Below, one piece after another: positions 28,332-39,615 of a DNA stretch of 64,000 bases. The stretch spans positions 64,001-128,000 of the IMG/VR virus record IMGVR_UViG_3300020048_000009. One strand, 5' to 3'. Under the pieces are notes generated by a model. That model did no database searches. It was not told the origin of the DNA and was given only the letters and a program-made list of their open reading frames with translations. The stretch's first letter is position 1; the number at the start of each line of letters is the position of its first letter. The position numbers and the translations under genes are program-made. The DNA is from a virus (taxonomy: Duplodnaviria > Caudoviricetes).

Positions 28332-28547
28332 ATGAACAAAATCAAAAAGAATCAAACACAATGTAATTGTGAATCCCAATGTAATTGGGAAGTTCAAGGA
28401 ATGTCTCCTTCTCCCATACAGAATAAAACAATTGTTTTTAGAATGTCATGTGATGGTAAATACTTTACGACAACTACAAATGAAGTATCAACCCTCACCA
28501 TCTGCCCTCACTGTAATCAACCCATAACTCACCTAAACAAGGTTTAA
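28332..28547 (+). CDS. Zn-ribbon hypothetical protein
   Basis: CPHC near C-terminus. Confidence 0.55.
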   Translation: MNKIKKNQTQCNCESQCNWEVQGMSPSPIQNKTIVFRMSCDGKYFTTTTNEVSTLTICPHCNQPITHLNKV

Positions 28548-28989: not shown

Positions 28990-29081
28990 GGAAGTGTGGC
29001 CGAGCCTGGTTTATGGCGGCTGATTACTAATCAGCAGGGGCCTTAAAACCCCCGTAGGTTCAAATCCTATCGCTTCCTCCA
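28990..29081 (+). tRNA. trnS: tRNA-Ser(ACT)
   Basis: GCTGA-TTACTAA-TCAGC; V-arm GGGG/CCCC; U73; followed by terminator. Confidence 0.85.
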
Positions 29082-29246: not shown

Positions 29247-29678
29247 TTGTCGATGGAATGTAAATACACAAAAGGCAATATTGTTCAAGTATCCCTCATA
29301 CCAAAGATGTATACTTGGTGTGAGCCTTTTTATAAAAACAACATAAAAGTTTTTATAGAAGTTACAGAGGCCGTAGCAGATAATGGCGGACATGAAGGTT
29401 ATTATAGGGGAATTTTAATACTTGAAAATGTAAATACAGAAACCTTTAAGAATCTTTATCGTTGGGATAGAACACTAGAACAATGGCTTGCCTATATATT
29501 GCCCTTATCTGTTAATGGTGAAAAATATGCAAGTCGAAATAAAGAAGATCCATACCCCTGGTCTTTTGTTGAAAATGAATTAGTCCTTAACCGAATTACC
29601 AAAGCTCTTCCTGAAGATATTGATTATGATAATATGCTGCCAGAAGCATATACTGCTTCTGTCTCAGATACATTATAA
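29247..29678 (+). CDS. DALIP-motif family protein 1
   Basis: C-term LPEDIDYDNMLPEAY. Confidence 0.75.
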   Translation: MSMECKYTKGNIVQVSLIPKMYTWCEPFYKNNIKVFIEVTEAVADNGGHEGYYRGILILENVNTETFKNLYRWDRTLEQWLAYILPLSVNGEKYASRNKEDPYPWSFVENELVLNRITKALPEDIDYDNMLPEAYTASVSDTL

Positions 29679-29686
29679 GGATTATT

Positions 29687-30046
29687 ATGAAACATAAATT
29701 TGACGTTGGTGATACAGTAGATATTATTTTTATAGATCCACCTGTTGGTGATGGTTATCGTTATGCTAAACCTTATCATTGGCAAGTATGGGCAGATAAA
29801 CAAAAGGTTAGACTATATGGTAAAATTACAAAGCGCGATGAAGAAAATGGATATAGAGTAGATATCTATAGATATGATACTGGAAATTTATGGAGAGTAG
29901 AGGCATTTTTTCAAGATTCTTGGAGTGATGCTTATAACTGGCGTTTGTATGAACATGAAGTAGTATCACAAGTACCCATTTGTGTTTTACCAGAAAATAT
30001 TGATTATGATGATTTTCTTCCAGCATCAATTGTAAACGTATTTTAA
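29687..30046 (+). CDS. DALIP-motif family protein 2
   Basis: KFDVGDTV; C-term LPENIDYDDFLPASI. Confidence 0.75.
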   Translation: MKHKFDVGDTVDIIFIDPPVGDGYRYAKPYHWQVWADKQKVRLYGKITKRDEENGYRVDIYRYDTGNLWRVEAFFQDSWSDAYNWRLYEHEVVSQVPICVLPENIDYDDFLPASIVNVF

Positions 30047-30047
30047 T

Positions 30048-30461
30048 ATGAATGAATTAGAAAATTTAAATGTTGGCGATCGTGTGATGTTTAATAGCCT
30101 GTCTATGCCTTGGAGATGGCATAGTGAACTACAAGCATTAAAGATTCCAGTGGTTGGTGAAATCTTTGAAAAACATCAATCCATTCTAGGACACGGTTTG
30201 CTTTTTACAGTATATGCACATATTCCAAATATTTCAATACAACAAATAGAGAGACTTGATAATTACAATCCTGGAAGTTTCTTTAGAAGATTTATTCCTA
30301 GAACTGTAAATGGAACACCTTATATATCGGATATGGGTGAACCACAAAGACATACATGGGAATATCATATCAGATATGTAATACCATTTATTCCGGTTTC
30401 ATTACCTGAAATTTTTGATTATGATGCATTACTTCCTGAAGAAATTATAAGAGGTATTTAA
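30048..30461 (+). CDS. DALIP-motif family protein 3
   Basis: LNVGDRV; C-term LPEIFDYDALLPEEI. Confidence 0.75.
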   Translation: MNELENLNVGDRVMFNSLSMPWRWHSELQALKIPVVGEIFEKHQSILGHGLLFTVYAHIPNISIQQIERLDNYNPGSFFRRFIPRTVNGTPYISDMGEPQRHTWEYHIRYVIPFIPVSLPEIFDYDALLPEEIIRGI

Positions 30462-30462
30462 T

Positions 30463-30795
30463 ATGGATATTCCAAACATAGATAGAAACATTAAGATTGT
30501 AAGATTGTCAAGTGGTAATGTCCTGGCTAGATTTACTAAAGCTGGTGAAGACTTACCAATAGTTTCTTTTTATCTAAAGGTTTTAAAATCAGGTATAGTT
30601 ATTAGGGGTGATCATGTTATTGAAGCTGTTGTATTCGATATGGATACAAACCAGGAATTGCTTGATGGTAAAGTCTTTACTATATATTTAAACAATATTA
30701 ACGTGTGGGAATATTGTGAATATGTTCCTAAAGTAAATGTAGATCTTTCATCTCTTGATGAAGATAGTCTTATTCCTGAGGATTTATATAAATGA
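30463..30795 (+). CDS. DALIP-motif family protein 4
   Basis: C-term DLSSLDEDSLIPEDLYK. Confidence 0.75.
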   Translation: MDIPNIDRNIKIVRLSSGNVLARFTKAGEDLPIVSFYLKVLKSGIVIRGDHVIEAVVFDMDTNQELLDGKVFTIYLNNINVWEYCEYVPKVNVDLSSLDEDSLIPEDLYK

Positions 30796-31211
30796 GTAAG
30801 ATGGATTTTGAAAAAGGTGATATAGTTTATTTTGATGCAGCAATCACTGACACCAGTTGGAGATGGCATAATGAACTGCGAGCATTGGGCATTACAGTAC
30901 ATGGTGAGTTTGCCTATAGCTGGGATTACTCCTATGAAGTATATATACACCTTCCGAAGATTACCGAAGAACAATTAAGGGCTTTAGATAAAGGTGATAC
31001 TCCTGGGAATTTCTTAAGACGCTTTAAACCCAAATCAATAAATGGAATATCATGCAGCTATTTTCATAGTATCTATGAAGGGTGTAGAACGTGGGAATAT
31101 AGTATGGAAACCGTACCAATCCACAAATTAAGTGCAGTCAAACCCCTTCCTGAAGATATTGATTATGATGCTCTTATTCCTAAAGAATTATATGAGGACC
31201 TATACAAATGA
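30792..31211 (+). CDS. DALIP-motif family protein 5 (closest to protein 3)
   Basis: WRWH.EL.AL shared with 30048; C-term LPEDIDYDALIPKELY. Confidence 0.75.
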   Translation: MSKMDFEKGDIVYFDAAITDTSWRWHNELRALGITVHGEFAYSWDYSYEVYIHLPKITEEQLRALDKGDTPGNFLRRFKPKSINGISCSYFHSIYEGCRTWEYSMETVPIHKLSAVKPLPEDIDYDALIPKELYEDLYK

Positions 31212-31555
31212 ACGAATATAGACTAACAGCTAAAATCGGAGATCTTGTTCGTCCCATATCTATTTCTAGTTATGACTGGTGGCAAGAATTAGGTATCAAA
31301 GGACAACATGATAATGTGTATGGAGTAGTTGTAGATCTAGCACTACATCTTTCAGGGTATATTGCAATAAATTTCTTTTATTGTGATACTGACTTGCCTA
31401 TTCGTCCATATCTTCATGATGATAGTGTGGCTAATCATTGGAATTTTTTGGATGATAGTATTGAATTTATACCTTATGTTAAGATAGATAATTCTAAAAT
31501 AAATATTCTAGAGATAGATGAAGATGCATTAATACCGGAAAATTTATATAATTAA
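31208..31555 (+). CDS. DALIP-motif family protein 6
   Basis: KIGDLV; C-term LEIDEDALIPENLYN. Confidence 0.75.
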   Translation: MNEYRLTAKIGDLVRPISISSYDWWQELGIKGQHDNVYGVVVDLALHLSGYIAINFFYCDTDLPIRPYLHDDSVANHWNFLDDSIEFIPYVKIDNSKINILEIDEDALIPENLYN

Positions 31556-31717
31556 CAGTGTACATTTAATAACAACAACTTCTAATTTATACTTTTTAAT
31601 CACGCTTTTTTCCTCCACCCTAGAGAATATCAAATAAATTTACACTTTTCAATCATTTCTGGTGTACATTCCATAAGAAAGACTTTAGAAATCCTGATAA
31701 ATAAAATAAAGGATTTT

Positions 31718-31981
31718 ATGTATTTGAAATTTTTTAGAAGCTTTTCGGATGAAATCATCAGGTTTGACAATTCTAATATTAGAAAATCTGAAGTTTTCCT
31801 AGTAAAACACCTGGGTATATCTTATAAGATAATAATCACTTCATATTGCTGTATAGTATCTTACTTCATATTAGGTAGAAATATCCCAGATAAACTAAAA
31901 GTAAATCCACATGATTACATCATCATCAAAAATAATAGATCAATCCTTTTAAAAGATGCTTATACCTATTTTATAAACTAA
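31718..31981 (+). CDS. Hypothetical late protein
   Basis: GATAAATA and AAGGA upstream. Confidence 0.5.
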   Translation: MYLKFFRSFSDEIIRFDNSNIRKSEVFLVKHLGISYKIIITSYCCIVSYFILGRNIPDKLKVNPHDYIIIKNNRSILLKDAYTYFIN

Positions 31982-32163
31982 AATATTAAAGCTAAACCCT
32001 TATTATTAAAGGATTTATATATCTAAGAAAAGCCTATCCCATTGTATCTCCGTGAGATACTTAACCTATATTAAAAACACCAGTAAGAACTAATAAGTTC
32101 AGTGTATATTATAATAAGTATAAAGTATAATATTAACATCTTGAAACATTAAAGGATTATAGT

Positions 32164-32412
32164 ATGATGCTTGCATGTATAACATGGTTCGGTTTAGGTT
32201 TATGTGGTGCTCTCGTTTATCTATTAACATCTATTCACTGTATGTATATGGGTGAATCTATTACCATGGGTGATTTTCTACTTATGGCTGTTATAATTAT
32301 TATGGGACCTCCTGCTTTTATAATTATAGGCTTTCTATGCATTCTCGCTGCTATACCTAATAATGAAAAGTTAAATAGATTTCTAGATAAAACAGTAATC
32401 AAAGGAAAATAA
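32164..32412 (+). CDS. Small membrane protein
   Basis: Two hydrophobic helices. Confidence 0.6.
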   Translation: MMLACITWFGLGLCGALVYLLTSIHCMYMGESITMGDFLLMAVIIIMGPPAFIIIGFLCILAAIPNNEKLNRFLDKTVIKGK

Positions 32413-32422
32413 AAGGATTCAT

Positions 32423-32665
32423 ATGATAACTTACTTCACCATATTACTCCTATTCGCGCCAGGTATCATCCTCGCCATAGTCTATACGTTTAGCTGCATT
32501 CGTAAGAAGAAGCTTACATGGGGAGATCTGGCTATTATCATACTCAGTGCAGTCTTCGGTGTATATAGTACCATATTCGCAGGTGTAATCTATATGGGTA
32601 ATCATCCTAAACGAATTAAAGAATTATGGAATCGTCCAATATGGACTAATAGACGAATCATTTAA
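32423..32665 (+). CDS. Small membrane protein
   Basis: Two hydrophobic helices. Confidence 0.6.
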   Translation: MITYFTILLLFAPGIILAIVYTFSCIRKKKLTWGDLAIIILSAVFGVYSTIFAGVIYMGNHPKRIKELWNRPIWTNRRII

Positions 32666-32934
32666 GGTGTATTTATGTATGATTTTTTTATATTATATAT
32701 CTATCTTATTTGTTATTAGTATATTCATCACACCAAACTAAAGGATTAAACAATATGAGCATAATTACTGTCTATATCATCATAGTCATTTTCGCTTTGG
32801 CTTTTAGTATTGGTCCTGATAAGCGATAACAGATATAAGGATTTAATAATAAAGGATTTATATGTGGATTTATTTAATTTTAATAATAATTATCGGTGGA
32901 TTAATAATGCAGTTTCACAGGAGATACTAACAAT

Positions 32935-33129
32935 ATGAAATATAACATGGATGATATAATCGATACACTAACACCTATGGAAATGGTAGAATTTTTAAAT
33001 AAGCTTCCTCTTCAGATTAACGTAGATGTAAATGCTAAAGCAACATTCTTTGGTAATATAAAGGGTGATGTTAAAGTAGAGCTTATCTATAAGGGTAATG
33101 TATTACAACAAAGAACTGAAAAAATTTAA
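32935..33129 (+). CDS. Hypothetical protein
   Basis: GGAG RBS. Confidence 0.5.
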   Translation: MKYNMDDIIDTLTPMEMVEFLNKLPLQINVDVNAKATFFGNIKGDVKVELIYKGNVLQQRTEKI

Positions 33130-33352
33130 ATAAAACAGTAAATAATTACATGGGAATATTCATAGTAATTATTTGTATACTGCTCGCGCTAATAACCTTA
33201 AGCCTTATCATTAAAGAGATGATAGGCTAAAATTTCAGTTAAAAATTAAAGAACTTTAAAAAGCAGACATTACGCGCGAGAAGAAATTTACGCGCGAGGA
33301 ATCTAGGAAAAGCACTCGGTCCATATTTTATATTCTTAGAAGGTAACTTTAT

Positions 33353-33616
33353 ATGAAAATAATTAAACGTGGTTTCTTCAATAAGGATATATATGAAGCA
33401 AATGGAAGGTATCCTATTGATAGAGGAGAGAATTATACCTTAGAAGATATACAGGGTATGTTTACTCTTGTATATAAGAAGGGTACTAAAGTAAATCTCT
33501 ATAATGATGGTGATAAAGAAGAGCCTCATTATTTCTGGTATCTTAATAAAGATGTTGATGGTGGTTGGTGGTCTGAAAGTGATTTCGTTAAAGCCAATAT
33601 TACTATTAAAGAATAG
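33353..33616 (+). CDS. Hypothetical protein
   Basis: AAGGT RBS. Confidence 0.55.
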   Translation: MKIIKRGFFNKDIYEANGRYPIDRGENYTLEDIQGMFTLVYKKGTKVNLYNDGDKEEPHYFWYLNKDVDGGWWSESDFVKANITIKE

Positions 33617-33846
33617 TTCCATATTTTATTTTCTTAAAAGAGGTAACTTTATATATGAATACTAGAGAGAGTGCATTACGTTGGTGGAGAGACCTAACTC
33701 ATTTACAGCAATGTGAATTGATTGGTAAATTTTTTCCAGGAAAATCTTTTATTGAAGTATCTACATCAAGCAGTAGAATCGAACAAATATTCTTAAAGGT
33801 AACTTTTTAAGTGTATTCTTATCCTTATACATGTTAATATCTATAT

Positions 33847-34071
33847 ATGAATATTCCAATACATATCTTATATAGATTTATGCAGACGATGATTGAACAT
33901 CCATTTCCTAGCATATGTAAGCATCATGTTTGTGTAAGTCTAATATCAGAGTTAGAACTTTCTGGTTATAAACTTACAGAAGATGAAACTTCTTTAGTGG
34001 TTTCTTTATGTGATAATAGTGCAGGTGATATTCAATCTCTTATTACTCTCGATAAATTATTAAAGGTTTAA
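33847..34071 (+). CDS. Duplicated hypothetical protein, copy A
   Basis: Near-identical to 35949-36173. Confidence 0.7.
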   Translation: MNIPIHILYRFMQTMIEHPFPSICKHHVCVSLISELELSGYKLTEDETSLVVSLCDNSAGDIQSLITLDKLLKV

Positions 34072-34240
34072 TTAATATGTATGAAAATTCTAGAATATTA
34101 GAACCTAATGAAGAAGTAAAGAAAGGTGATTTAATTCTATTAGTAGGTAAGAGTTGGATTATTGCAATAGATACACCAGTTAAATATTTAGCTAAAGATT
34201 TTATAGAAGTAAGAAGAAGGAAAGAAGAGGTTTAAAGATT

Positions 34241-34540
34241 ATGGTAGTAGTTGATATTGAATGTTTATTACATGTGGTGACATTATCGGAATTGTCATTA
34301 GTTTGTCCTATTGTTATGGAAAAATTTAGGAGTAATGATAAGTATTTCCATATCGATCAATATGTCAGAGAGAATGGTGCAACTGTATGTATAGATTTAA
34401 ATGAATGGTGGAATGTTTTACCTGGGAAAGAGAAGGTAGATATTATAAGTACTTTCCATAGAGAATATAGACAGAGGCAAAAGGATTGTGAATATTCTGC
34501 GGATCAATTGTTTGAATATTGTTATGATATTAAAGACTAG
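34241..34540 (+). CDS. Hypothetical protein
   Basis: Co-oriented ORF. Confidence 0.55.
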   Translation: MVVVDIECLLHVVTLSELSLVCPIVMEKFRSNDKYFHIDQYVRENGATVCIDLNEWWNVLPGKEKVDIISTFHREYRQRQKDCEYSADQLFEYCYDIKD

Positions 34541-34552
34541 GAGAATATAGAT

Positions 34553-34768
34553 ATGTTATCAGAAGAACAATTAGAAGCTTTAAAGGATTTAAGAGATGCA
34601 GGTATCATGGATCACGGTACGATTTCTGATTGTGGTGAAGCGTGCAACTGTCCTGCTTCTAATTTTATGTCTAAAGAAAGATGTGAATGTGGAGCAGATG
34701 AACATAATGAGCATCTTAATAGGGTTTATGATAATGTTCTGAAAATACTTACTGCTAAAGAAGTCTAG
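34553..34768 (+). CDS. Cys/His-rich hypothetical protein
   Basis: H...CGEAC..CECGA..HN. Confidence 0.6.
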   Translation: MLSEEQLEALKDLRDAGIMDHGTISDCGEACNCPASNFMSKERCECGADEHNEHLNRVYDNVLKILTAKEV

Positions 34769-34770
34769 AT

Positions 34771-35073
34771 ATGAATAAGTTTAGTGTAGGTGATAAAGTT
34801 AAGGTTGTTCAATATGCAGGACGTGATTCTGAGAATCACCGCTATTTTAAAATTGGTAACGTCGGGATTGTTAGACAGGTAAATCTTCGTGGTGTCGGTG
34901 GATATCAGGATATGTTATTTGTTGATTTTAATGATCCTTCTAATACATATATATTCGGAAATGGTTGTTGGTATGTTTATAATGAAAATAGTTTAAGGTT
35001 GGATACTATTGAAATTGATATATCAACTTTAGATGAAGATGCTTTAATCCCTCAGGAATTATATGAAAAATAA
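34771..35073 (+). CDS. DALIP-motif family protein 7
   Basis: KFSVGDKVKV; C-term DISTLDEDALIPQELYEK. Confidence 0.75.
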   Translation: MNKFSVGDKVKVVQYAGRDSENHRYFKIGNVGIVRQVNLRGVGGYQDMLFVDFNDPSNTYIFGNGCWYVYNENSLRLDTIEIDISTLDEDALIPQELYEK

Positions 35074-35332
35074 TATTTATAACGGAACGATTGAAATAGA
35101 GAAACACATCTATGGATATGAATGGTGGAGTAATAAAAAAGCTTTTCCTAAAGAAATAGATGAAATGCTAAAAGCTTATTCTGAGAATTATATTAAGACG
35201 TGGTATTATTGTAAGAAGACGTTTAGTAATGATTGTGATTTTGATTATGCTAATAATGGATATTTTCCTGGTATTGAGCGTTTTAATATTGAATTAATAG
35301 GATGGTTTGATGGTAGAAGAATTTCTTGGTGA
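35063..35332 (+). CDS. Hypothetical protein
   Basis: Co-oriented ORF. Confidence 0.5.
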   Translation: MKNNIYNGTIEIEKHIYGYEWWSNKKAFPKEIDEMLKAYSENYIKTWYYCKKTFSNDCDFDYANNGYFPGIERFNIELIGWFDGRRISW

Positions 35333-35505
35333 TAACTTATGGATGAATTATTAGAAGAGTTAAGTAAATGTGATAAGATTCTTACATCTTTAGCTGGAAG
35401 GTATTATAGTAATGATCCTTTAGCTTGGAGAGGTACTGTATCGGAAAGACTTTCTTATATAACGGATAATTTAATAAAAGATGTAGAAGAAGGTAGAGGA
35501 AATGG

Positions 35506-35688
35506 ATGATACCTTTATGTGATAGAACTTATGAGACTTGTCAAGTATGGGATGATCCTGAAATGTATGACGATGATATTGTAGGAACATCTGTTGCTGA
35601 AAGTAATGCTTTGATTAGAGATTGTGAATATTGTAGAGATTGTCCCTTTCATTTTAGAAATGCAACGTTTACACCTCTAAAGGAATAG
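35506..35688 (+). CDS. Cys-rich hypothetical protein
   Basis: GAGGA RBS. Confidence 0.5.
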   Translation: MIPLCDRTYETCQVWDDPEMYDDDIVGTSVAESNALIRDCEYCRDCPFHFRNATFTPLKE

Positions 35689-35693
35689 TTTAT

Positions 35694-35912
35694 ATGAAAT
35701 TAATTTATGTATCAGAGAATCATTCTACTCCTATTTGTGCACAAACAAGTAGTGGTATATCTATTCTTTTATATTGGTTAATTCAGGATAGAGATATTGG
35801 GAAAATTGTTAAATTTAATACTTGTTCACATTCTGTAGAAATTGGACAAGTTGGTAAAATCTTAGTTCATAATAGAACAGCTGGAACAATTGCTATTATT
35901 GATTCTATGTAG
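35694..35912 (+). CDS. Hypothetical protein
   Basis: AAGGA RBS. Confidence 0.5.
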   Translation: MKLIYVSENHSTPICAQTSSGISILLYWLIQDRDIGKIVKFNTCSHSVEIGQVGKILVHNRTAGTIAIIDSM

Positions 35913-35948
35913 GTGTATTATCATTATTTCTTTTGATATTATTTATAT

Positions 35949-36173
35949 ATGAATATTCCAATAGATATATTATATAGGTTTATGAAAACCATAGTTAAGC
36001 ATCCTGGTCCACATGCATGTAAGCATTATGTATGTGTTACTCTTATATCAGAGTTAGAACGTTCTGGTTATAAACTTTCAGAAGATGAAATATCTTTAGT
36101 TCATTCTTTATGTGATAATAGTGCAGGAGATGAACAGTCTCTTATTACGCTTGATAAATTAATAAAGGCTTAG
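35949..36173 (+). CDS. Duplicated hypothetical protein, copy B
   Basis: Near-identical to 33847-34071. Confidence 0.7.
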   Translation: MNIPIDILYRFMKTIVKHPGPHACKHYVCVTLISELERSGYKLSEDEISLVHSLCDNSAGDEQSLITLDKLIKA

Positions 36174-36181
36174 GTGATATT

Positions 36182-36460
36182 ATGGATGACTGGGAACGTA
36201 CTTTATTAAAGGCAATGCATGAGAGGGATATGAATGATCCTGTTTATAAAGAGGGTTTCGAATCGGAGTGGGAGTTAAACCCTTATGTATTTCCAGAAGA
36301 GTTGAGCGATGCTAGAACGAGAATTGCCTGTTTAGACCGGGCTCTTACATCAGAAGAAAAAGAAAAATTGTTTTTTCTTGGGAGAGACTTCGATGCGACT
36401 GATTGGAATAGATGGTCAAAGGGTTTTTATAGGAGAAATCTTTTTAAGAAAATGGAGTAA
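36182..36460 (+). CDS. Hypothetical protein
   Basis: Co-oriented ORF. Confidence 0.55.
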   Translation: MDDWERTLLKAMHERDMNDPVYKEGFESEWELNPYVFPEELSDARTRIACLDRALTSEEKEKLFFLGRDFDATDWNRWSKGFYRRNLFKKME

Positions 36461-36461
36461 T

Positions 36462-36608
36462 ATGAAAATAAATGATTTATCAGTAACGGATATAACAAAT
36501 CTTCTAAAATTTTCTCCTATTTCAAGGGAGCTACATCAAATTTTAATTAAAAGAATTGATGAGATTAAAAGTGACCTTATTAAAGAAGATCGGGATAAAG
36601 GCTTATGA
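36462..36608 (+). CDS. Hypothetical protein
   Basis: GGAG RBS. Confidence 0.45.
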   Translation: MKINDLSVTDITNLLKFSPISRELHQILIKRIDEIKSDLIKEDRDKGL

Positions 36609-36829
36609 AAATTAAAGCTCCTAGAAAAGTAAAACCCTTTATAACAACTGAATATATTGTAGGATGTCCTAATAGATATTACTTTATAATTTATGTGAAT
36701 AAAAGAATCTCACCATTGAAAAGTAAATATTATACTTCTAAAAAAAGTGCAACGAACGCATTAAATAAAGTATTGAAGTATTATAATTTAATAGATGAAA
36801 CTGTTTTAGATTTTAGTACTACAAAATGA
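36605..36829 (+). CDS. Hypothetical protein
   Basis: Co-oriented ORF. Confidence 0.5.
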   Translation: MKIKAPRKVKPFITTEYIVGCPNRYYFIIYVNKRISPLKSKYYTSKKSATNALNKVLKYYNLIDETVLDFSTTK

Positions 36830-37129
36830 CACAGATAGAAATAATTTCCGAGTTACTTAAGATTATACGAGATCCTATTAAGGGTGCCAATTTATCTATT
36901 AAAGATATGGCGATAACTGAGGAGGCCGATCTGATTGTTAAGAACGCTAAGGATTCTCTTATATGAGCACATATTATCAGCAACTTGGTAAAGCTTCTAA
37001 TGCTAAAAATAAAAGATGTCGGAGAGGTAACGAGTCTAGAAATAATATCTTTGATGAACCTTGGAAACAATTTATACCTAGTCACATTTCTAAAAGAATT
37101 ATTAAATTTAGAAAATTAAAGGAGTCTAA

Positions 37130-37318
37130 ATGAAAGAATTAAAATTAGTACTTGAAAGTTGCAAAGGTTGTCCTTATCTTACATGGGAAGAGAATAATGG
37201 ATGTGGAAATTATGCTGGCTGGAGTCATTGCAACAAGAAGAATCAACATATTGAAAGAAATACTATGTATCCAGAATTCCCTGTATGGTGTCCATTAACC
37301 GATAAACCCAAAGCGTAG
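37130..37318 (+). CDS. Cys-rich small protein (CKGCPY...C...PVWCPL)
   Basis: AAGGAG RBS. Confidence 0.6.
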   Translation: MKELKLVLESCKGCPYLTWEENNGCGNYAGWSHCNKKNQHIERNTMYPEFPVWCPLTDKPKA

Positions 37319-37542
37319 GAAATTTATGAAGGATATTTTTAAACAATTGATGCATGATAATTGTGGTGTTGGTGGTATAAAATGCTATTGCTGTAATGAT
37401 TGGAAAGGTAAGGCTAGAAAAGGTTTGAATAGAATTGTTCGAGCTATGTTAAAGCAGCATGACCTAAAAGAAAATATCAGAGAGCAAGAAAAAGATTAAC
37501 GTAATAGTGTATTTATCGAAGAGTATTTGTTAGTATTTATAT

Positions 37543-37794
37543 ATGAGTATTACAAGTAGAAAGTTAACATCTGAAGATAGAATACCTTTATATAGAATAT
37601 ACGGCCATATGTATGAATGGACGAGCGGTATGGCCTCTAAAGGAATTCGGGATGGTGATGTAACTATTAACGGTGTTGTAATTACAGATGATAAGTTCTT
37701 AGTAAAAGACGGTGATAAGATATGTGAATCTAAAGGTAAGGAATATGTTATAGAAATTCCTTCTTATTGGAGACAGAGTTGTAATACAAAATAG
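37543..37794 (+). CDS. S4-like RNA-binding domain protein
   Basis: SKGIRDGDVTINGVVITDDKFLVKDGDKI matches the S4 pattern. Confidence 0.6.
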   Translation: MSITSRKLTSEDRIPLYRIYGHMYEWTSGMASKGIRDGDVTINGVVITDDKFLVKDGDKICESKGKEYVIEIPSYWRQSCNTK

Positions 37795-37820
37795 ATTTTT
37801 AGAAAAGAAAGAGAGAAATT

Positions 37821-38051
37821 ATGATAGAGTTATCAATATACTTTGGGTGCGGCCTGTTGGCATTTATAATTTGGTTTATATTATGTAAGATTGAAGGTTC
37901 TACTATTAAAGAATTACTTTTAGGTTTTTTATTTTTTGCATTGGGATATGTTGGGCTTATGCTTCTTTTAGGTGTAACTATTTGTGTTACTGTTGACCAA
38001 TATATAGTAGGTAATCCTAAATTTCAGGCATGGTTAAATAAAAAGATTTAA
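37821..38051 (+). CDS. Small membrane protein
   Basis: Two TM helices. Confidence 0.6.
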   Translation: MIELSIYFGCGLLAFIIWFILCKIEGSTIKELLLGFLFFALGYVGLMLLLGVTICVTVDQYIVGNPKFQAWLNKKI

Positions 38052-38054
38052 AAT

Positions 38055-38924
38055 ATGAAGTTAAAAGATTACGTTGATAATTCAATTTTGTATTATCCCA
38101 GTTTATATAGAGCTCATAATTATGAAGACTCTAGGCTTCTTGTATTGGATCATATATTTCTAACAATTGGTAATGGCTTAGAATGGCATAAAGATGGTTT
38201 TATTACCGAATTGGGATATAGGGGAAAATATAATACAAAGTATAAAGCCAAAAAGATTCCCGAAAATTTCTTTTCTGATGATTTATGGGAATTGCATTTA
38301 CTTAAAGAACATTTAAAAGAAGTAAAGAAATTGTTGAAGGGTTATTATTCTTATATATTAAGAAATGGACATACTAAAATAACATTAGCTTTTCTATGTA
38401 ATGATATGTCTTTAGTTAATTCCATTTTCTTGAAATATGATATTAAAACTAGTATGGAAATTTGTTTAGAAAAGTTTTTGAAAGAAAATCAAATTGAAAA
38501 AACAAGAACACCTAGAAAGTTTCAAGTTAATAAAGAAGAAGAACATACGCCTTACCCGATGTGTCATTATAGTGCTATTGTAGAAATGATTAATAGGAAG
38601 ACGGAGTCTCTACATATAACAAATTTTGGTTTAGTTAATATCCAGCCTGATTATATAGAAGGTGCATTGGATGCTGCTAAAAGGGCATTAAGATTTTATA
38701 AAGATCCTGAAAAAAATAAACTGGACCATTACCATCCGTCGAAATCATTAAAAGGCTTTAAAGAATTTTATGAAACAGATCCTGAGAAATTTAGACGTGA
38801 AAGAGTAAAAGATGGAATGTTACCAGAACATACGATTGAGCAATGGTGTCAGATTTGTTGGGAGAAACATCTTGTTGAACAAATAGGTTATTGTGAGAAG
38901 CTTATTGAGATGTATGGAAAATAA
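38055..38924 (+). CDS. Hypothetical protein
   Basis: Long ORF, no family recognised. Confidence 0.75.
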   Translation: MKLKDYVDNSILYYPSLYRAHNYEDSRLLVLDHIFLTIGNGLEWHKDGFITELGYRGKYNTKYKAKKIPENFFSDDLWELHLLKEHLKEVKKLLKGYYSYILRNGHTKITLAFLCNDMSLVNSIFLKYDIKTSMEICLEKFLKENQIEKTRTPRKFQVNKEEEHTPYPMCHYSAIVEMINRKTESLHITNFGLVNIQPDYIEGALDAAKRALRFYKDPEKNKLDHYHPSKSLKGFKEFYETDPEKFRRERVKDGMLPEHTIEQWCQICWEKHLVEQIGYCEKLIEMYGK

Positions 38925-38990
38925 TATTATATCTTAAGTGTATTATTTTGTTTGAATTACTTATAATGTAAGTACTTAAAGGCTTATTAT

Positions 38991-39305
38991 ATGAGTAGAT
39001 TTAAAAGGGGTGATAAAGTTAGAGTTGTTTGTTATGCCGGTAATGATACTGGTAATACAAGATATTTTAGTATAGGTGATATTGGAGTTGTTGAGTTTAT
39101 CGAGGTTATCGGTATAAAAAACCCGAGTATGATACAGGTTAATTTTAATGACCCATCAAATAAAAAAATATATCAAAAGGGTATATGGTACGTATATTGT
39201 GAAGATAGCTTAGAATTTCATGGTAAATACGATAAAATTGATATTTCAACTCTTGATGAAGATGCGTTAATTCCTGATGTATTATATAAACAGGAAATAA
39301 AATAA
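38991..39305 (+). CDS. DALIP-motif family protein 8
   Basis: RFKRGDKVRV; C-term DISTLDEDALIPDVLYK. Confidence 0.75.
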   Translation: MSRFKRGDKVRVVCYAGNDTGNTRYFSIGDIGVVEFIEVIGIKNPSMIQVNFNDPSNKKIYQKGIWYVYCEDSLEFHGKYDKIDISTLDEDALIPDVLYKQEIK

Positions 39306-39306
39306 C

Positions 39307-39615
39307 ATGAGCCGATTTAAAAAAGGTGATAAAGTTAGAGTTATACAATTTGCAACTCCTGATATTGGTAATAATCGATACTTTAGTATTGGTGATATCG
39401 GAATTGTTATGGAGTCAAATGTTCATGCTCGAGGTTTAATATTGACGGATGTTAGTTTTAAGGGGCAGGGAAATAAAAATGTTATAGACGGCGGTAGATG
39501 GTGGGTTTATTGTGAAGATAGTTTAGCGTTAGTTTATGATTTTAAATTTGATATTTCGACTCTTGACGAAGATGCACTTATACCAGAGGAACTTTATAAA
39601 AAAGGAGAAAATTAA
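39307..39615 (+). CDS. DALIP-motif family protein 9
   Basis: RFKKGDKVRV; C-term DISTLDEDALIPEELYK. Confidence 0.75.
   Translation: MSRFKKGDKVRVIQFATPDIGNNRYFSIGDIGIVMESNVHARGLILTDVSFKGQGNKNVIDGGRWWVYCEDSLALVYDFKFDISTLDEDALIPEELYKKGEN

Follow-up and report, generated by a model that had tools for sequence, protein, structure and literature searches.

A candidate docking peptide at the C-termini of nine diversified small proteins of a T4-like jumbo phage

Why does a phage hold one short peptide at the ends of nine small proteins whose bodies have otherwise drifted apart? The question is raised by a 64,000-nt window (bases 64,001-128,000) of one 211,678-bp contig with a G+C content of 29.8% (IMG/VR virus record IMGVR_UViG_3300020048_000009, classed as linear, with a completeness estimate of 84%), in which nine genes, here called p1 to p9 (Table 1), encode proteins that end in closely similar acidic-hydrophobic tails. 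The reading that we favour, and to which we give an even chance, is that the tail is a portable short linear docking motif, carried by diversified small SH3-like proteins and recognized by one common partner. We set out below the conservation of the peptide, its relation to the bodies and to the DNA that encodes it, and the explanations that compete for it.

The tail peptide and its conservation

A preliminary description of this DNA, made from its letters alone, had listed nine open reading frames (ORFs) with a shared C-terminal motif, and all nine were found at the positions it gave, on the + strand. Their tails follow the consensus hydrophobic-D-(Y/E)-D-x-(L/M/F)-(L/I)-P-x-x-(L/I)-(Y/hydrophobic), carry a net charge of -4 to -6, and fall into two types: (L)PExIDYDx(L/M/F)(L/I)P in p1, p2, p3 and p5, and (D/N)I(S/L)x(L/I)DED(A/S)LIPxxLY in p4, p6, p7, p8 and p9. 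Because the core is followed in all nine by 4-12 variable residues after the proline, the free C-terminus itself lies outside the motif.

The peptide is confined to these proteins. A six-frame search of the whole genome with the regular expression D[YEDF][DE].[LMFIV][LIVM]P returned exactly nine matches, every one in p1-p9 and at 5-11 residues from the stop; a looser expression gave 11 genome matches against 0.8 in shuffled sequences. A hidden Markov model (HMM) of the 16-residue tails recovered the nine at E 6e-8 to 1e-5, with the next genome match at E 1.8, and detected the motif in no other protein of the 212-kb record.

The codons indicate what has been conserved. The tails of p7 and p9 are identical at 15 of 16 residues and use the same codon at only 6 of 15 positions, and across the copies the conserved residues are spelled in different ways: Leu as CTT, TTA, CTA or CTG; Ile as ATT, ATA or ATC; Pro as CCT, CCA or CCG; Ala as GCA, GCT or GCG; and Ser and Asp likewise vary. 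In an alignment of 22 sequences that includes relatives of the nine, the tail is the most conserved part of the proteins, its columns holding 2.1-4.3 bits compared with about 1.6 for the body, where the exceptions are one Gly, one Tyr and one Trp. This is not the pattern of recent duplicates without special tail conservation, given the excess of information in the tail columns and the drift of the codons. Comparison with the orthologs on a related 8.6-kb contig (L017) gave dN/dS values of 0.10-0.35, and p1-p9 are thus real genes. Taken together, these sequence comparisons show conservation selected at the peptide level while the bodies diverge, as the preliminary description had supposed.

Two details of the N-termini complete the picture. 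Eight of the nine proteins begin with a strand of the form (K/x)(F/Y/L)xxG(D/N)xV, in line with the KFxVGDxV-like start reported earlier, and p4 conforms only loosely. For p1, ATG 29253 is more likely to be the start codon than TTG 29247, because a database copy of the protein (P0004) is 141 aa long.

Table 1. Tail-bearing genes and other features of the phage genome. Positions are those of the window unless marked as genome positions.
Feature	Position	Strand	Description	Tail (position)
p1	29247-29678	+	143 aa (141 if begun at ATG 29253); insertion in the body; DYD-type tail	LPEDIDYDNMLPEAYTASVSDTL (29607-29675)
p2	29687-30046	+	119 aa; starts KFDVGDTV; DYD-type tail; dN/dS 0.13 vs L017 ortholog	LPENIDYDDFLPASIVNVF (29987-30043)
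p3	30048-30461	+	137 aa; paralog of p5; DYD-type tail; dN/dS 0.35	LPEIFDYDALLPEEIIRGI (30402-30458)
p4	30463-30795	+	110 aa; body subtype of its own; DED-type tail; relatives P0009, P0015; dN/dS 0.28	DLSSLDEDSLIPEDLYK (30742-30792)
p5	30792-31211	+	139 aa; paralog of p3; dN/dS 0.10	LPEDIDYDALIPKELYEDLYK (31146-31208)
p6	31208-31555	+	115 aa; DED-type tail, chimeric vs L017; recombination joint within 31471-31524	NILEIDEDALIPENLYN (31502-31552)
p7	34771-35073	+	100 aa; dispersed copy; SH3-like body	DISTLDEDALIPQELYEK (35017-35070)
p8	38991-39305	+	104 aa; SH3-like body	DISTLDEDALIPDVLYKQEIK (39240-39302)
p9	39307-39615	+	102 aa; modelled SH3-like barrel, residues 9-75	DISTLDEDALIPEELYKKGEN (39550-39612)
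Promoter-like site	38938-38967	+	GTGTAT-N18-TATAAT, just upstream of p8/p9	
Promoter-like sites of the window	224, 14431, 18811, 26202, 32102, 38938, 44059, 44990, 47332, 49748, 56360			
tRNA-Ser	28990-29081		anticodon ACT (ARAGORN)	
Zinc-ribbon protein	28332-28547		71 aa	
Small paralog pair	33847-34071 and 35949-36173		74 aa each	
Array A	genome 50,146-54,895 (L003:10149-14859)	-	six tandem paralogs of ~260 aa (one of 186 aa); outside the window	
128-aa protein	genome 55515-55907 (L003:15515-15904)	+	adjoins array A	
142-aa ORF	genome 56168-56605 (L003:16168-16602)	+	matches phrog_207	
Phage GroEL	genome 58505-60145 (L003:18505-20000)	+		
Family B DNA polymerase ORF	genome 37229-39136	+	N-part	

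Bodies, fold and relatives

The preliminary description had seen the bodies as a set of varied, barely alignable domains. Pairwise comparison bears out the poor alignability: with the tails trimmed, BLASTP joins only p3 with p5 (38% identity, E 5e-18) and p7, p8 and p9 with one another (42-51%), all other pairs staying above E 0.008, and body-only profiles of one subgroup fail to recover the other subgroups. The variety of domains is another matter, since landmarks common to the bodies in the 22-sequence alignment (G, Y, T-N and W) point to mostly one fold. Because of these landmarks, most of the small bodies probably belong to one very diverged SH3-like superfamily rather than being unrelated domains. 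The effector or sensor role that the preliminary description had proposed for them found no support.

Structure prediction is consistent with this. The AlphaFold2 model of p9, computed from the 22-sequence alignment, has a mean predicted local distance difference test (pLDDT) score of 75.9 and contains five strands (residues 9-12, 31-41, 44-50, 64-67 and 73-75). Foldseek places the model next to PetP, PsaE, SH3, YorP and NusG-KOW structures (probability 0.9-1.0, E 7e-3 to 0.2), with template modelling scores by target of 0.6-0.74, and clusters of the AlphaFold database add NifZ, KOW and DUF4926; with the matches in that database and in the ESM Atlas included, the scores by target span 0.6-0.76. 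The earlier SH3/KOW-like call thus appears right, generically and at the level of the predicted fold. The body of p9 is predicted to have the same fold as small SH3-like or KOW-like barrels such as PetP, PsaE, YorP, NifZ, DUF4926, DUF4314 and the NusG KOW domain; these families lack the tail, and p1-p9 are not members of them by sequence. None of the nine proteins has a Pfam match below E 0.03 or a PHROG match below 5e-4.

The tail appears to lie beyond this fold. The modelled p9 barrel ends near residue 75; the C-terminal blocks that follow (residues 81-102) have pLDDT values of 64, 64 and 52, with the tail drawn as isolated 3-10 turns; and the structural neighbours of p9 align only as far as about residue 83, those in the ESM Atlas from residue 1 to 78, or at most to 88. 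In the model of p5, a linker (residues 89-118) with pLDDT below 50 precedes a somewhat better predicted short helix (residues 131-137, KELYEDL). A relative with a body of the p7-p9 type, P0010, is 81 aa long and ends right after the barrel at a true stop codon, with the next gene beginning 3 nt on and no tail remnant in any frame. From the modest p9 model and this tail-less homologue, the tail looks like an add-on. A tail that is the last strand or helix of a shared fold, which the preliminary description had named as fatal to its proposal, is thus not what the model shows.

Other relatives carry the tail on other bodies: proteins of 75 and 92 aa, with the proline-rich linkers PTPPPLPEG and PPEPKPLPA ahead of it, and proteins of 129-145 aa. 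Two further contigs, L012 and L011, hold four tail-bearing genes each, those of L012 in a row and one of those of L011 truncated by the contig end. L017, a Logan contig, is syntenic with window positions 29761-33360 (nucleotide identity about 89%) and contains two tail-bearing genes more than the window (L017:703-981 and L017:2083-2427). In a 116-aa relative (L010:792-1139) the tail, FDISTVTLNLESDLDTLIA, is degenerate and cut short, ending directly behind L-I; this sequence shows that the part of the tail following the proline can be lost.

The family is small. An exhaustive profile search of 1.8 billion representatives returned five non-self relatives only; megablast and tblastn searches of the GenBank phage collection found no relatives, a homologous-protein search with p7 found only p7 itself, and about 13 kb of extra flanking sequence contained no further members. 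Back-translated tail patterns had no match in IMG/VR and three in JGI metagenome contigs, all by chance; as these patterns gave no further members, the family is, on present sequence collections, restricted to a small clade known from a few lake metagenome contigs.

Recombination, genome setting and expression

In blastn comparisons between distant relatives, essentially only the tail-coding segments align. Two indels separate the window from L017, each corresponding to one additional tail-bearing gene in L017; at the borders of the second lies a 54-nt piece of tail DNA in two copies (window 31471-31524). The p6 tail of the window is chimeric, agreeing with the L017 ortholog of p6 in its 5' part and with the tail of the extra gene in its 3' part, with the crossover in the common stretch GATAATTCTAAAATAAATATTCTAGA. 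Being the only stretch common to the paralogs, tail-coding DNA is, as judged from these alignments, a working joint of homologous recombination for the gain and loss of cassettes, and would have become so as a by-product of conservation at the peptide level.

The genome that carries the locus is that of a T4-like jumbo myophage, as indicated by genes that include UvsX, UvsY, a family B polymerase, a tail sheath and a terminase. The record itself encodes a helicase, SbcC, a UvsX-like recombinase, a NAD ligase, the N-part of the family B polymerase, GroEL and the large terminase, while UvsY and the tail sheath lie just past the record start, in flanking sequence. The polymerase ORF covers positions 33-253 of 453 of Pfam DNA_pol_B, the C-terminal half falling outside the 212-kb record. 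The nine proteins are also present on a 274-kb contig, and the phage recurs in metagenomes from aquatic samples, lake water and groundwater; none of the RNA runs searched holds the locus. The phage GroEL is about 51-53% identical to GroEL proteins of metagenome-assembled genomes of Kiritimatiellia, Lentisphaerae and Verrucomicrobia, a weak hint in sequence similarity of a host or gene donor in the PVC group.

Around the tail genes lie further small genes. Two 74-aa paralogs (MNIPI.ILYRFM.T...SLITLDKL) flank p7, so that the accessory block holds one more family of small paralogs. A zinc-ribbon protein (C..C ... CPHC) encoded ahead of the array p1-p6 is a conserved neighbour and a possible partner: its 59-aa syntenic homologue in the distant relative L012 (2046-2225) stands just before the tail genes there. 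A tRNA-Ser gene stands directly upstream of the array, followed by a T-rich hairpin and a variant promoter-like site, GGTAT-N20-TATAAT, upstream of p1. Elsewhere in the genome, an ORF of 142 aa that stands by itself among accessory genes has a match to the head-maturation-protease family phrog_207 (E 5e-11).

Sites of the form GTGTA(T/G)-N15-19-TA(T/A)AAT, in which the GTGTA(T/G) box is non-canonical and -35-like, occur 16 times in the genome, 14 of them on the + strand and mostly at 61-121 kb, which corresponds to the + strand block of small genes. No TATAAATA motif, the late promoter type of this phage, was found upstream of the tail genes, and from these promoter-like sequences we infer that the genes belong to the early or middle class. 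A scan of the region for the sigma-70 consensus gave 60 sites against 72.9 expected and is uninformative in such AT-rich DNA.

A second set of carriers may exist outside the window. Array A, preceded at 41 nt by a TATAAATA motif, encodes proteins with a leader MKRFxxLRxKLLxE, an internal hinge (I/V)DY(D/N)xLDxL(L/I)(P/S/D/E) and the end W..KYKxIxPKEFI. One hinge copy, FDTSSLDMDELIDPE, is identical to the p9 tail, FDISTLDEDALIPEE, at nine of 15 positions. A regular expression for the hinge gives five matches against none in shuffled sequences, which count as one event because the array-A proteins are paralogs; the hhalign alignment is confined to the motif region (E 0.04); and the ungapped score of p9 against protein A1 is 38, the highest in the genome, next to 37 for the best of 40 shuffled queries. 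These figures are suggestive of the tail motif being carried internally in array A and do not establish it. If the link is real, the motif is functional inside a protein too, and a C-terminal signal would then fit less well than a linear motif. For array A, Pfam and PHROG gave nothing usable, a homologue search with protein A5 returned only itself, and the ESM Atlas model, with a pLDDT of 0.31, is uninformative. The 128-aa protein that adjoins the array contains DIDYAYIKNY near its N-terminus and TDEELIPDLE in its middle, motif fragments that could be due to chance (two matches of the expression observed, 0.34 expected).

Candidate functions of the tail

In the docking account, the tail would be tethered by a flexible linker to small SH3-like bodies that diverge fast, as well as to some bodies of other types, and would tie all carriers to one common phage or host protein. 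The most likely use would be a panel of diversified small binders or inhibitors brought to one hub during host takeover, since the genes appear to lie in an early or middle accessory region; the tail DNA would double as the recombination joint by which bodies are gained and lost. The account draws on the uniqueness of the peptide, the selection on it at the protein level, the prediction that it is separate from the fold, the range of bodies that carry it and the recombination at its DNA; what it adds is the binding of a partner and the timing of expression. The preliminary description had likewise proposed modular proteins with a common docking tag for one hub, and the modular half of that proposal has fared well: the tail behaves as a separate, selected module, present on other bodies and absent from P0010. 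For the other half, the hub, no partner was found in any search made.

Other points also weigh against the docking account. The AlphaFold confidence of the tail is low and the alignment of 22 sequences is shallow, so that its placement outside the fold rests on a modest model and a tail-less homologue; the p5 model is poor (pLDDT 58.9). As most of the small bodies share their landmarks, the tail could have a structural role common to one fold family. Early expression is read from a promoter-like motif only, and a family with five non-self relatives offers thin evolutionary sampling. A complex prediction for p8 with p9 scored 0.00, which gives no verdict and is not counted as evidence.

Several known systems help to place the tail. 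In T4, gp43, gp55 and gp33 carry short hydrophobic-acidic tails that are interchangeable, stand on divergent flexible linkers and all dock on the sliding clamp gp45 (PMC2988020, PMC7892883). These sliding-clamp-binding motifs (SCBM) resemble our tail in lying near the C-terminus of otherwise unrelated phage proteins, and the present phage is T4-like, with TATAAATA-type late promoter motifs. However, the SCBM is terminal, whereas the motif here is followed by 4-12 variable residues, and its carriers here are nine small SH3-like accessory proteins, not replication or transcription factors. No clamp gene was detected in the 212-kb record (estimated 84% complete; a 274-kb version exists): profiles for gp45-type and beta clamps (PF09116, PF02916, PF00712) and for SSB (PF00436) were all without a match, and none of nine further large ORFs was identified as a clamp or clamp loader, the matches being to the terminase, to an RNA-binding protein (phrog_850), to NAD-salvage enzymes and to a CCA-adding enzyme. 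Homologues of gp55 and gp33 were not located. A search of Protein Data Bank (PDB) sequences with the tail profile gave chance matches only (HydB, AlcC).

The second comparison is with the capsid targeting sequence (CTS) of T-even phages, an N-terminal leader of about 10 residues that ends in (L/I)xE and is removed by the prohead protease from late, packaged proteins. The T4 internal proteins form a hyperplastic set of small, diverse proteins that have in common only the CTS, which takes them to one destination (PMC3012670). Here too, diverse small phage proteins share one short conserved peptide; unlike the CTS, it is C-terminal, the N-termini being taken up by the first barrel strand (MxxFxxGDxV), and the nearest upstream sites are GTGTAT-N18-TATAAT rather than TATAAATA, in an apparently early region. 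By analogy, the locus may be a lineage-specific form of this known T4 tail and CTS principle, in which the peptide, its position and the gene class differ. A bolder and more doubtful extension, which we regard as tentative, is that the peptide serves as a plug-and-play adaptor in a phage system not described so far, by which at least nine early small SH3-like proteins, and possibly six late, virion-destined ones of ~260 aa with the motif inside, would meet at one conserved hub of host or phage. The DNA of the adaptor would serve as the joint for swapping, gaining and losing bodies, and the locus would correspond, with a C-terminal peptide and among early genes, to the arms-race locus of internal proteins and CTS in T4.

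The alternative that survives best, though we regard it as rather unlikely, is that the tail is a structural or self-association element that latches on the barrel (for example, on a conserved Trp/Tyr surface) or on another member, with autoinhibition or hetero-oligomers as the result. SH3-like barrels typically bind proline-containing peptides, the bodies conserve little beyond G, Y and W, and the genes are adjacent and translationally coupled. However, AlphaFold gave no confident docking of the tail on the body, bodies without the G/Y/W landmarks bear the tail as well, and the tail-less homologue keeps its body. One variant, in which an acidic tail inhibits a basic body in the style of Hfq, SSB or gp32, is not favoured because the bodies are not basic (isoelectric points 4.7-8.9). 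EF-hand calcium-binding and PDZ-ligand readings were dropped by eye, the spacing being unfit and the C-termini variable.

We consider it distinctly unlikely that the tail is a turnover or processing signal, either a degron or a site for a T4-type prohead protease, which would time or mature the whole set. T4-type prohead proteases cut after (L/I)xE; the five DED-type tails contain LDE or IDE, and the four DYD-type ones have LPE a little ahead of the motif; in addition, the genome has a head-maturation-protease-like paralog (the 142-aa ORF of Table 1). Yet an (L/I)xE site leaves the conservation of D-x-D, of L-I-P and of the following L-Y unexplained, and the two tail types do not have the E in the same place. 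Shared C-terminal degrons are a known principle, but the known ones depend on the extreme C-terminus, which is variable here.

Improbable, too, and slightly more so, is that the tail directs loading into the virion as a C-terminal equivalent of the T4 CTS, in which case the proteins would be packaged and ejected with the DNA. The precedent is the T4 internal proteins, which are diverse except for their targeting peptide (PMC3012670), and array A adds a possibly related motif in six paralogs that have a late promoter and CTS-like N-terminal leaders. Against this stand the setting of the nine genes, which lie in the + strand small-gene region behind early-type rather than late-type sites, the N-terminal position of the T4 CTS, and the statistical weakness of the link to the late array.

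Mimicry of a host hub-binding tail, that of FtsZ or of SSB, by which the phage proteins would dock on or compete for the partners of that tail, we regard as very unlikely. The FtsZ C-terminal peptide DYLDIPAFLRKQAD binds FtsA, ZipA, MinC, ZapD, ClpX and SlmA, and SSB ends in D-D-D-(I/L)-P-F with Phe as its last residue. The architecture of the FtsZ tail is indeed similar (a linker, an acidic-hydrophobic peptide of about 12 residues, a short variable end and docking on several partners), and I-P with a Leu four residues on reproduces the spacing of I374 and L378, which are critical in FtsZ (PMC4117426). The FtsZ tails of four genomes read (E/D)EDLD(L/I)PT(F/Y)(L/I)RR in three cases and EDLDTPTYLRR in one; their aromatic residue at +3 and basic residue at +5 are not kept here. 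At the sequence level the idea was rejected: the FtsZ pattern D-(I/L/V)-P-x-(F/Y)-(L/I)-(R/K) is not matched above chance, and both of our tail HMMs score the four FtsZ tails at background (343,000 residues) and find no match in five bacterial genomes or in PDB sequences. In the SSB tail, too, I-P comes after a stretch of acidic residues in a flexible segment, the likeness remarked on in the preliminary description, but it does not extend further: there is no terminal Phe motif (4-12 residues follow the Pro, and a last residue Phe occurs in p2 alone, seven residues past its Pro) and no free-carboxylate recognition, and the body is SH3-like, not an OB fold.

That the conservation is a DNA-level by-product, produced by gene-conversion homogenization or by recombination joints without any function of the peptide, is hardly credible: recombination at the tail DNA is demonstrated, but from paralog to paralog the synonymous sites of the tails are largely randomized and the residues stay, the peptide persists in distant relatives, and the codon data largely exclude this reading.

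Although the phage is uncultured and the family comes from a few lake metagenome contigs, the docking account bears on a general problem. Giant phages carry hundreds of small orphan genes that offer no handle, and one peptide common to nine, possibly fifteen, proteins is such a handle. A peptide of 20 residues could reveal a repeatedly targeted hub and give a common pathway to a block of dark-matter genes, and the locus offers a clear case from nature in which the DNA coding for a short linear motif serves as a joint for the exchange of cassettes.

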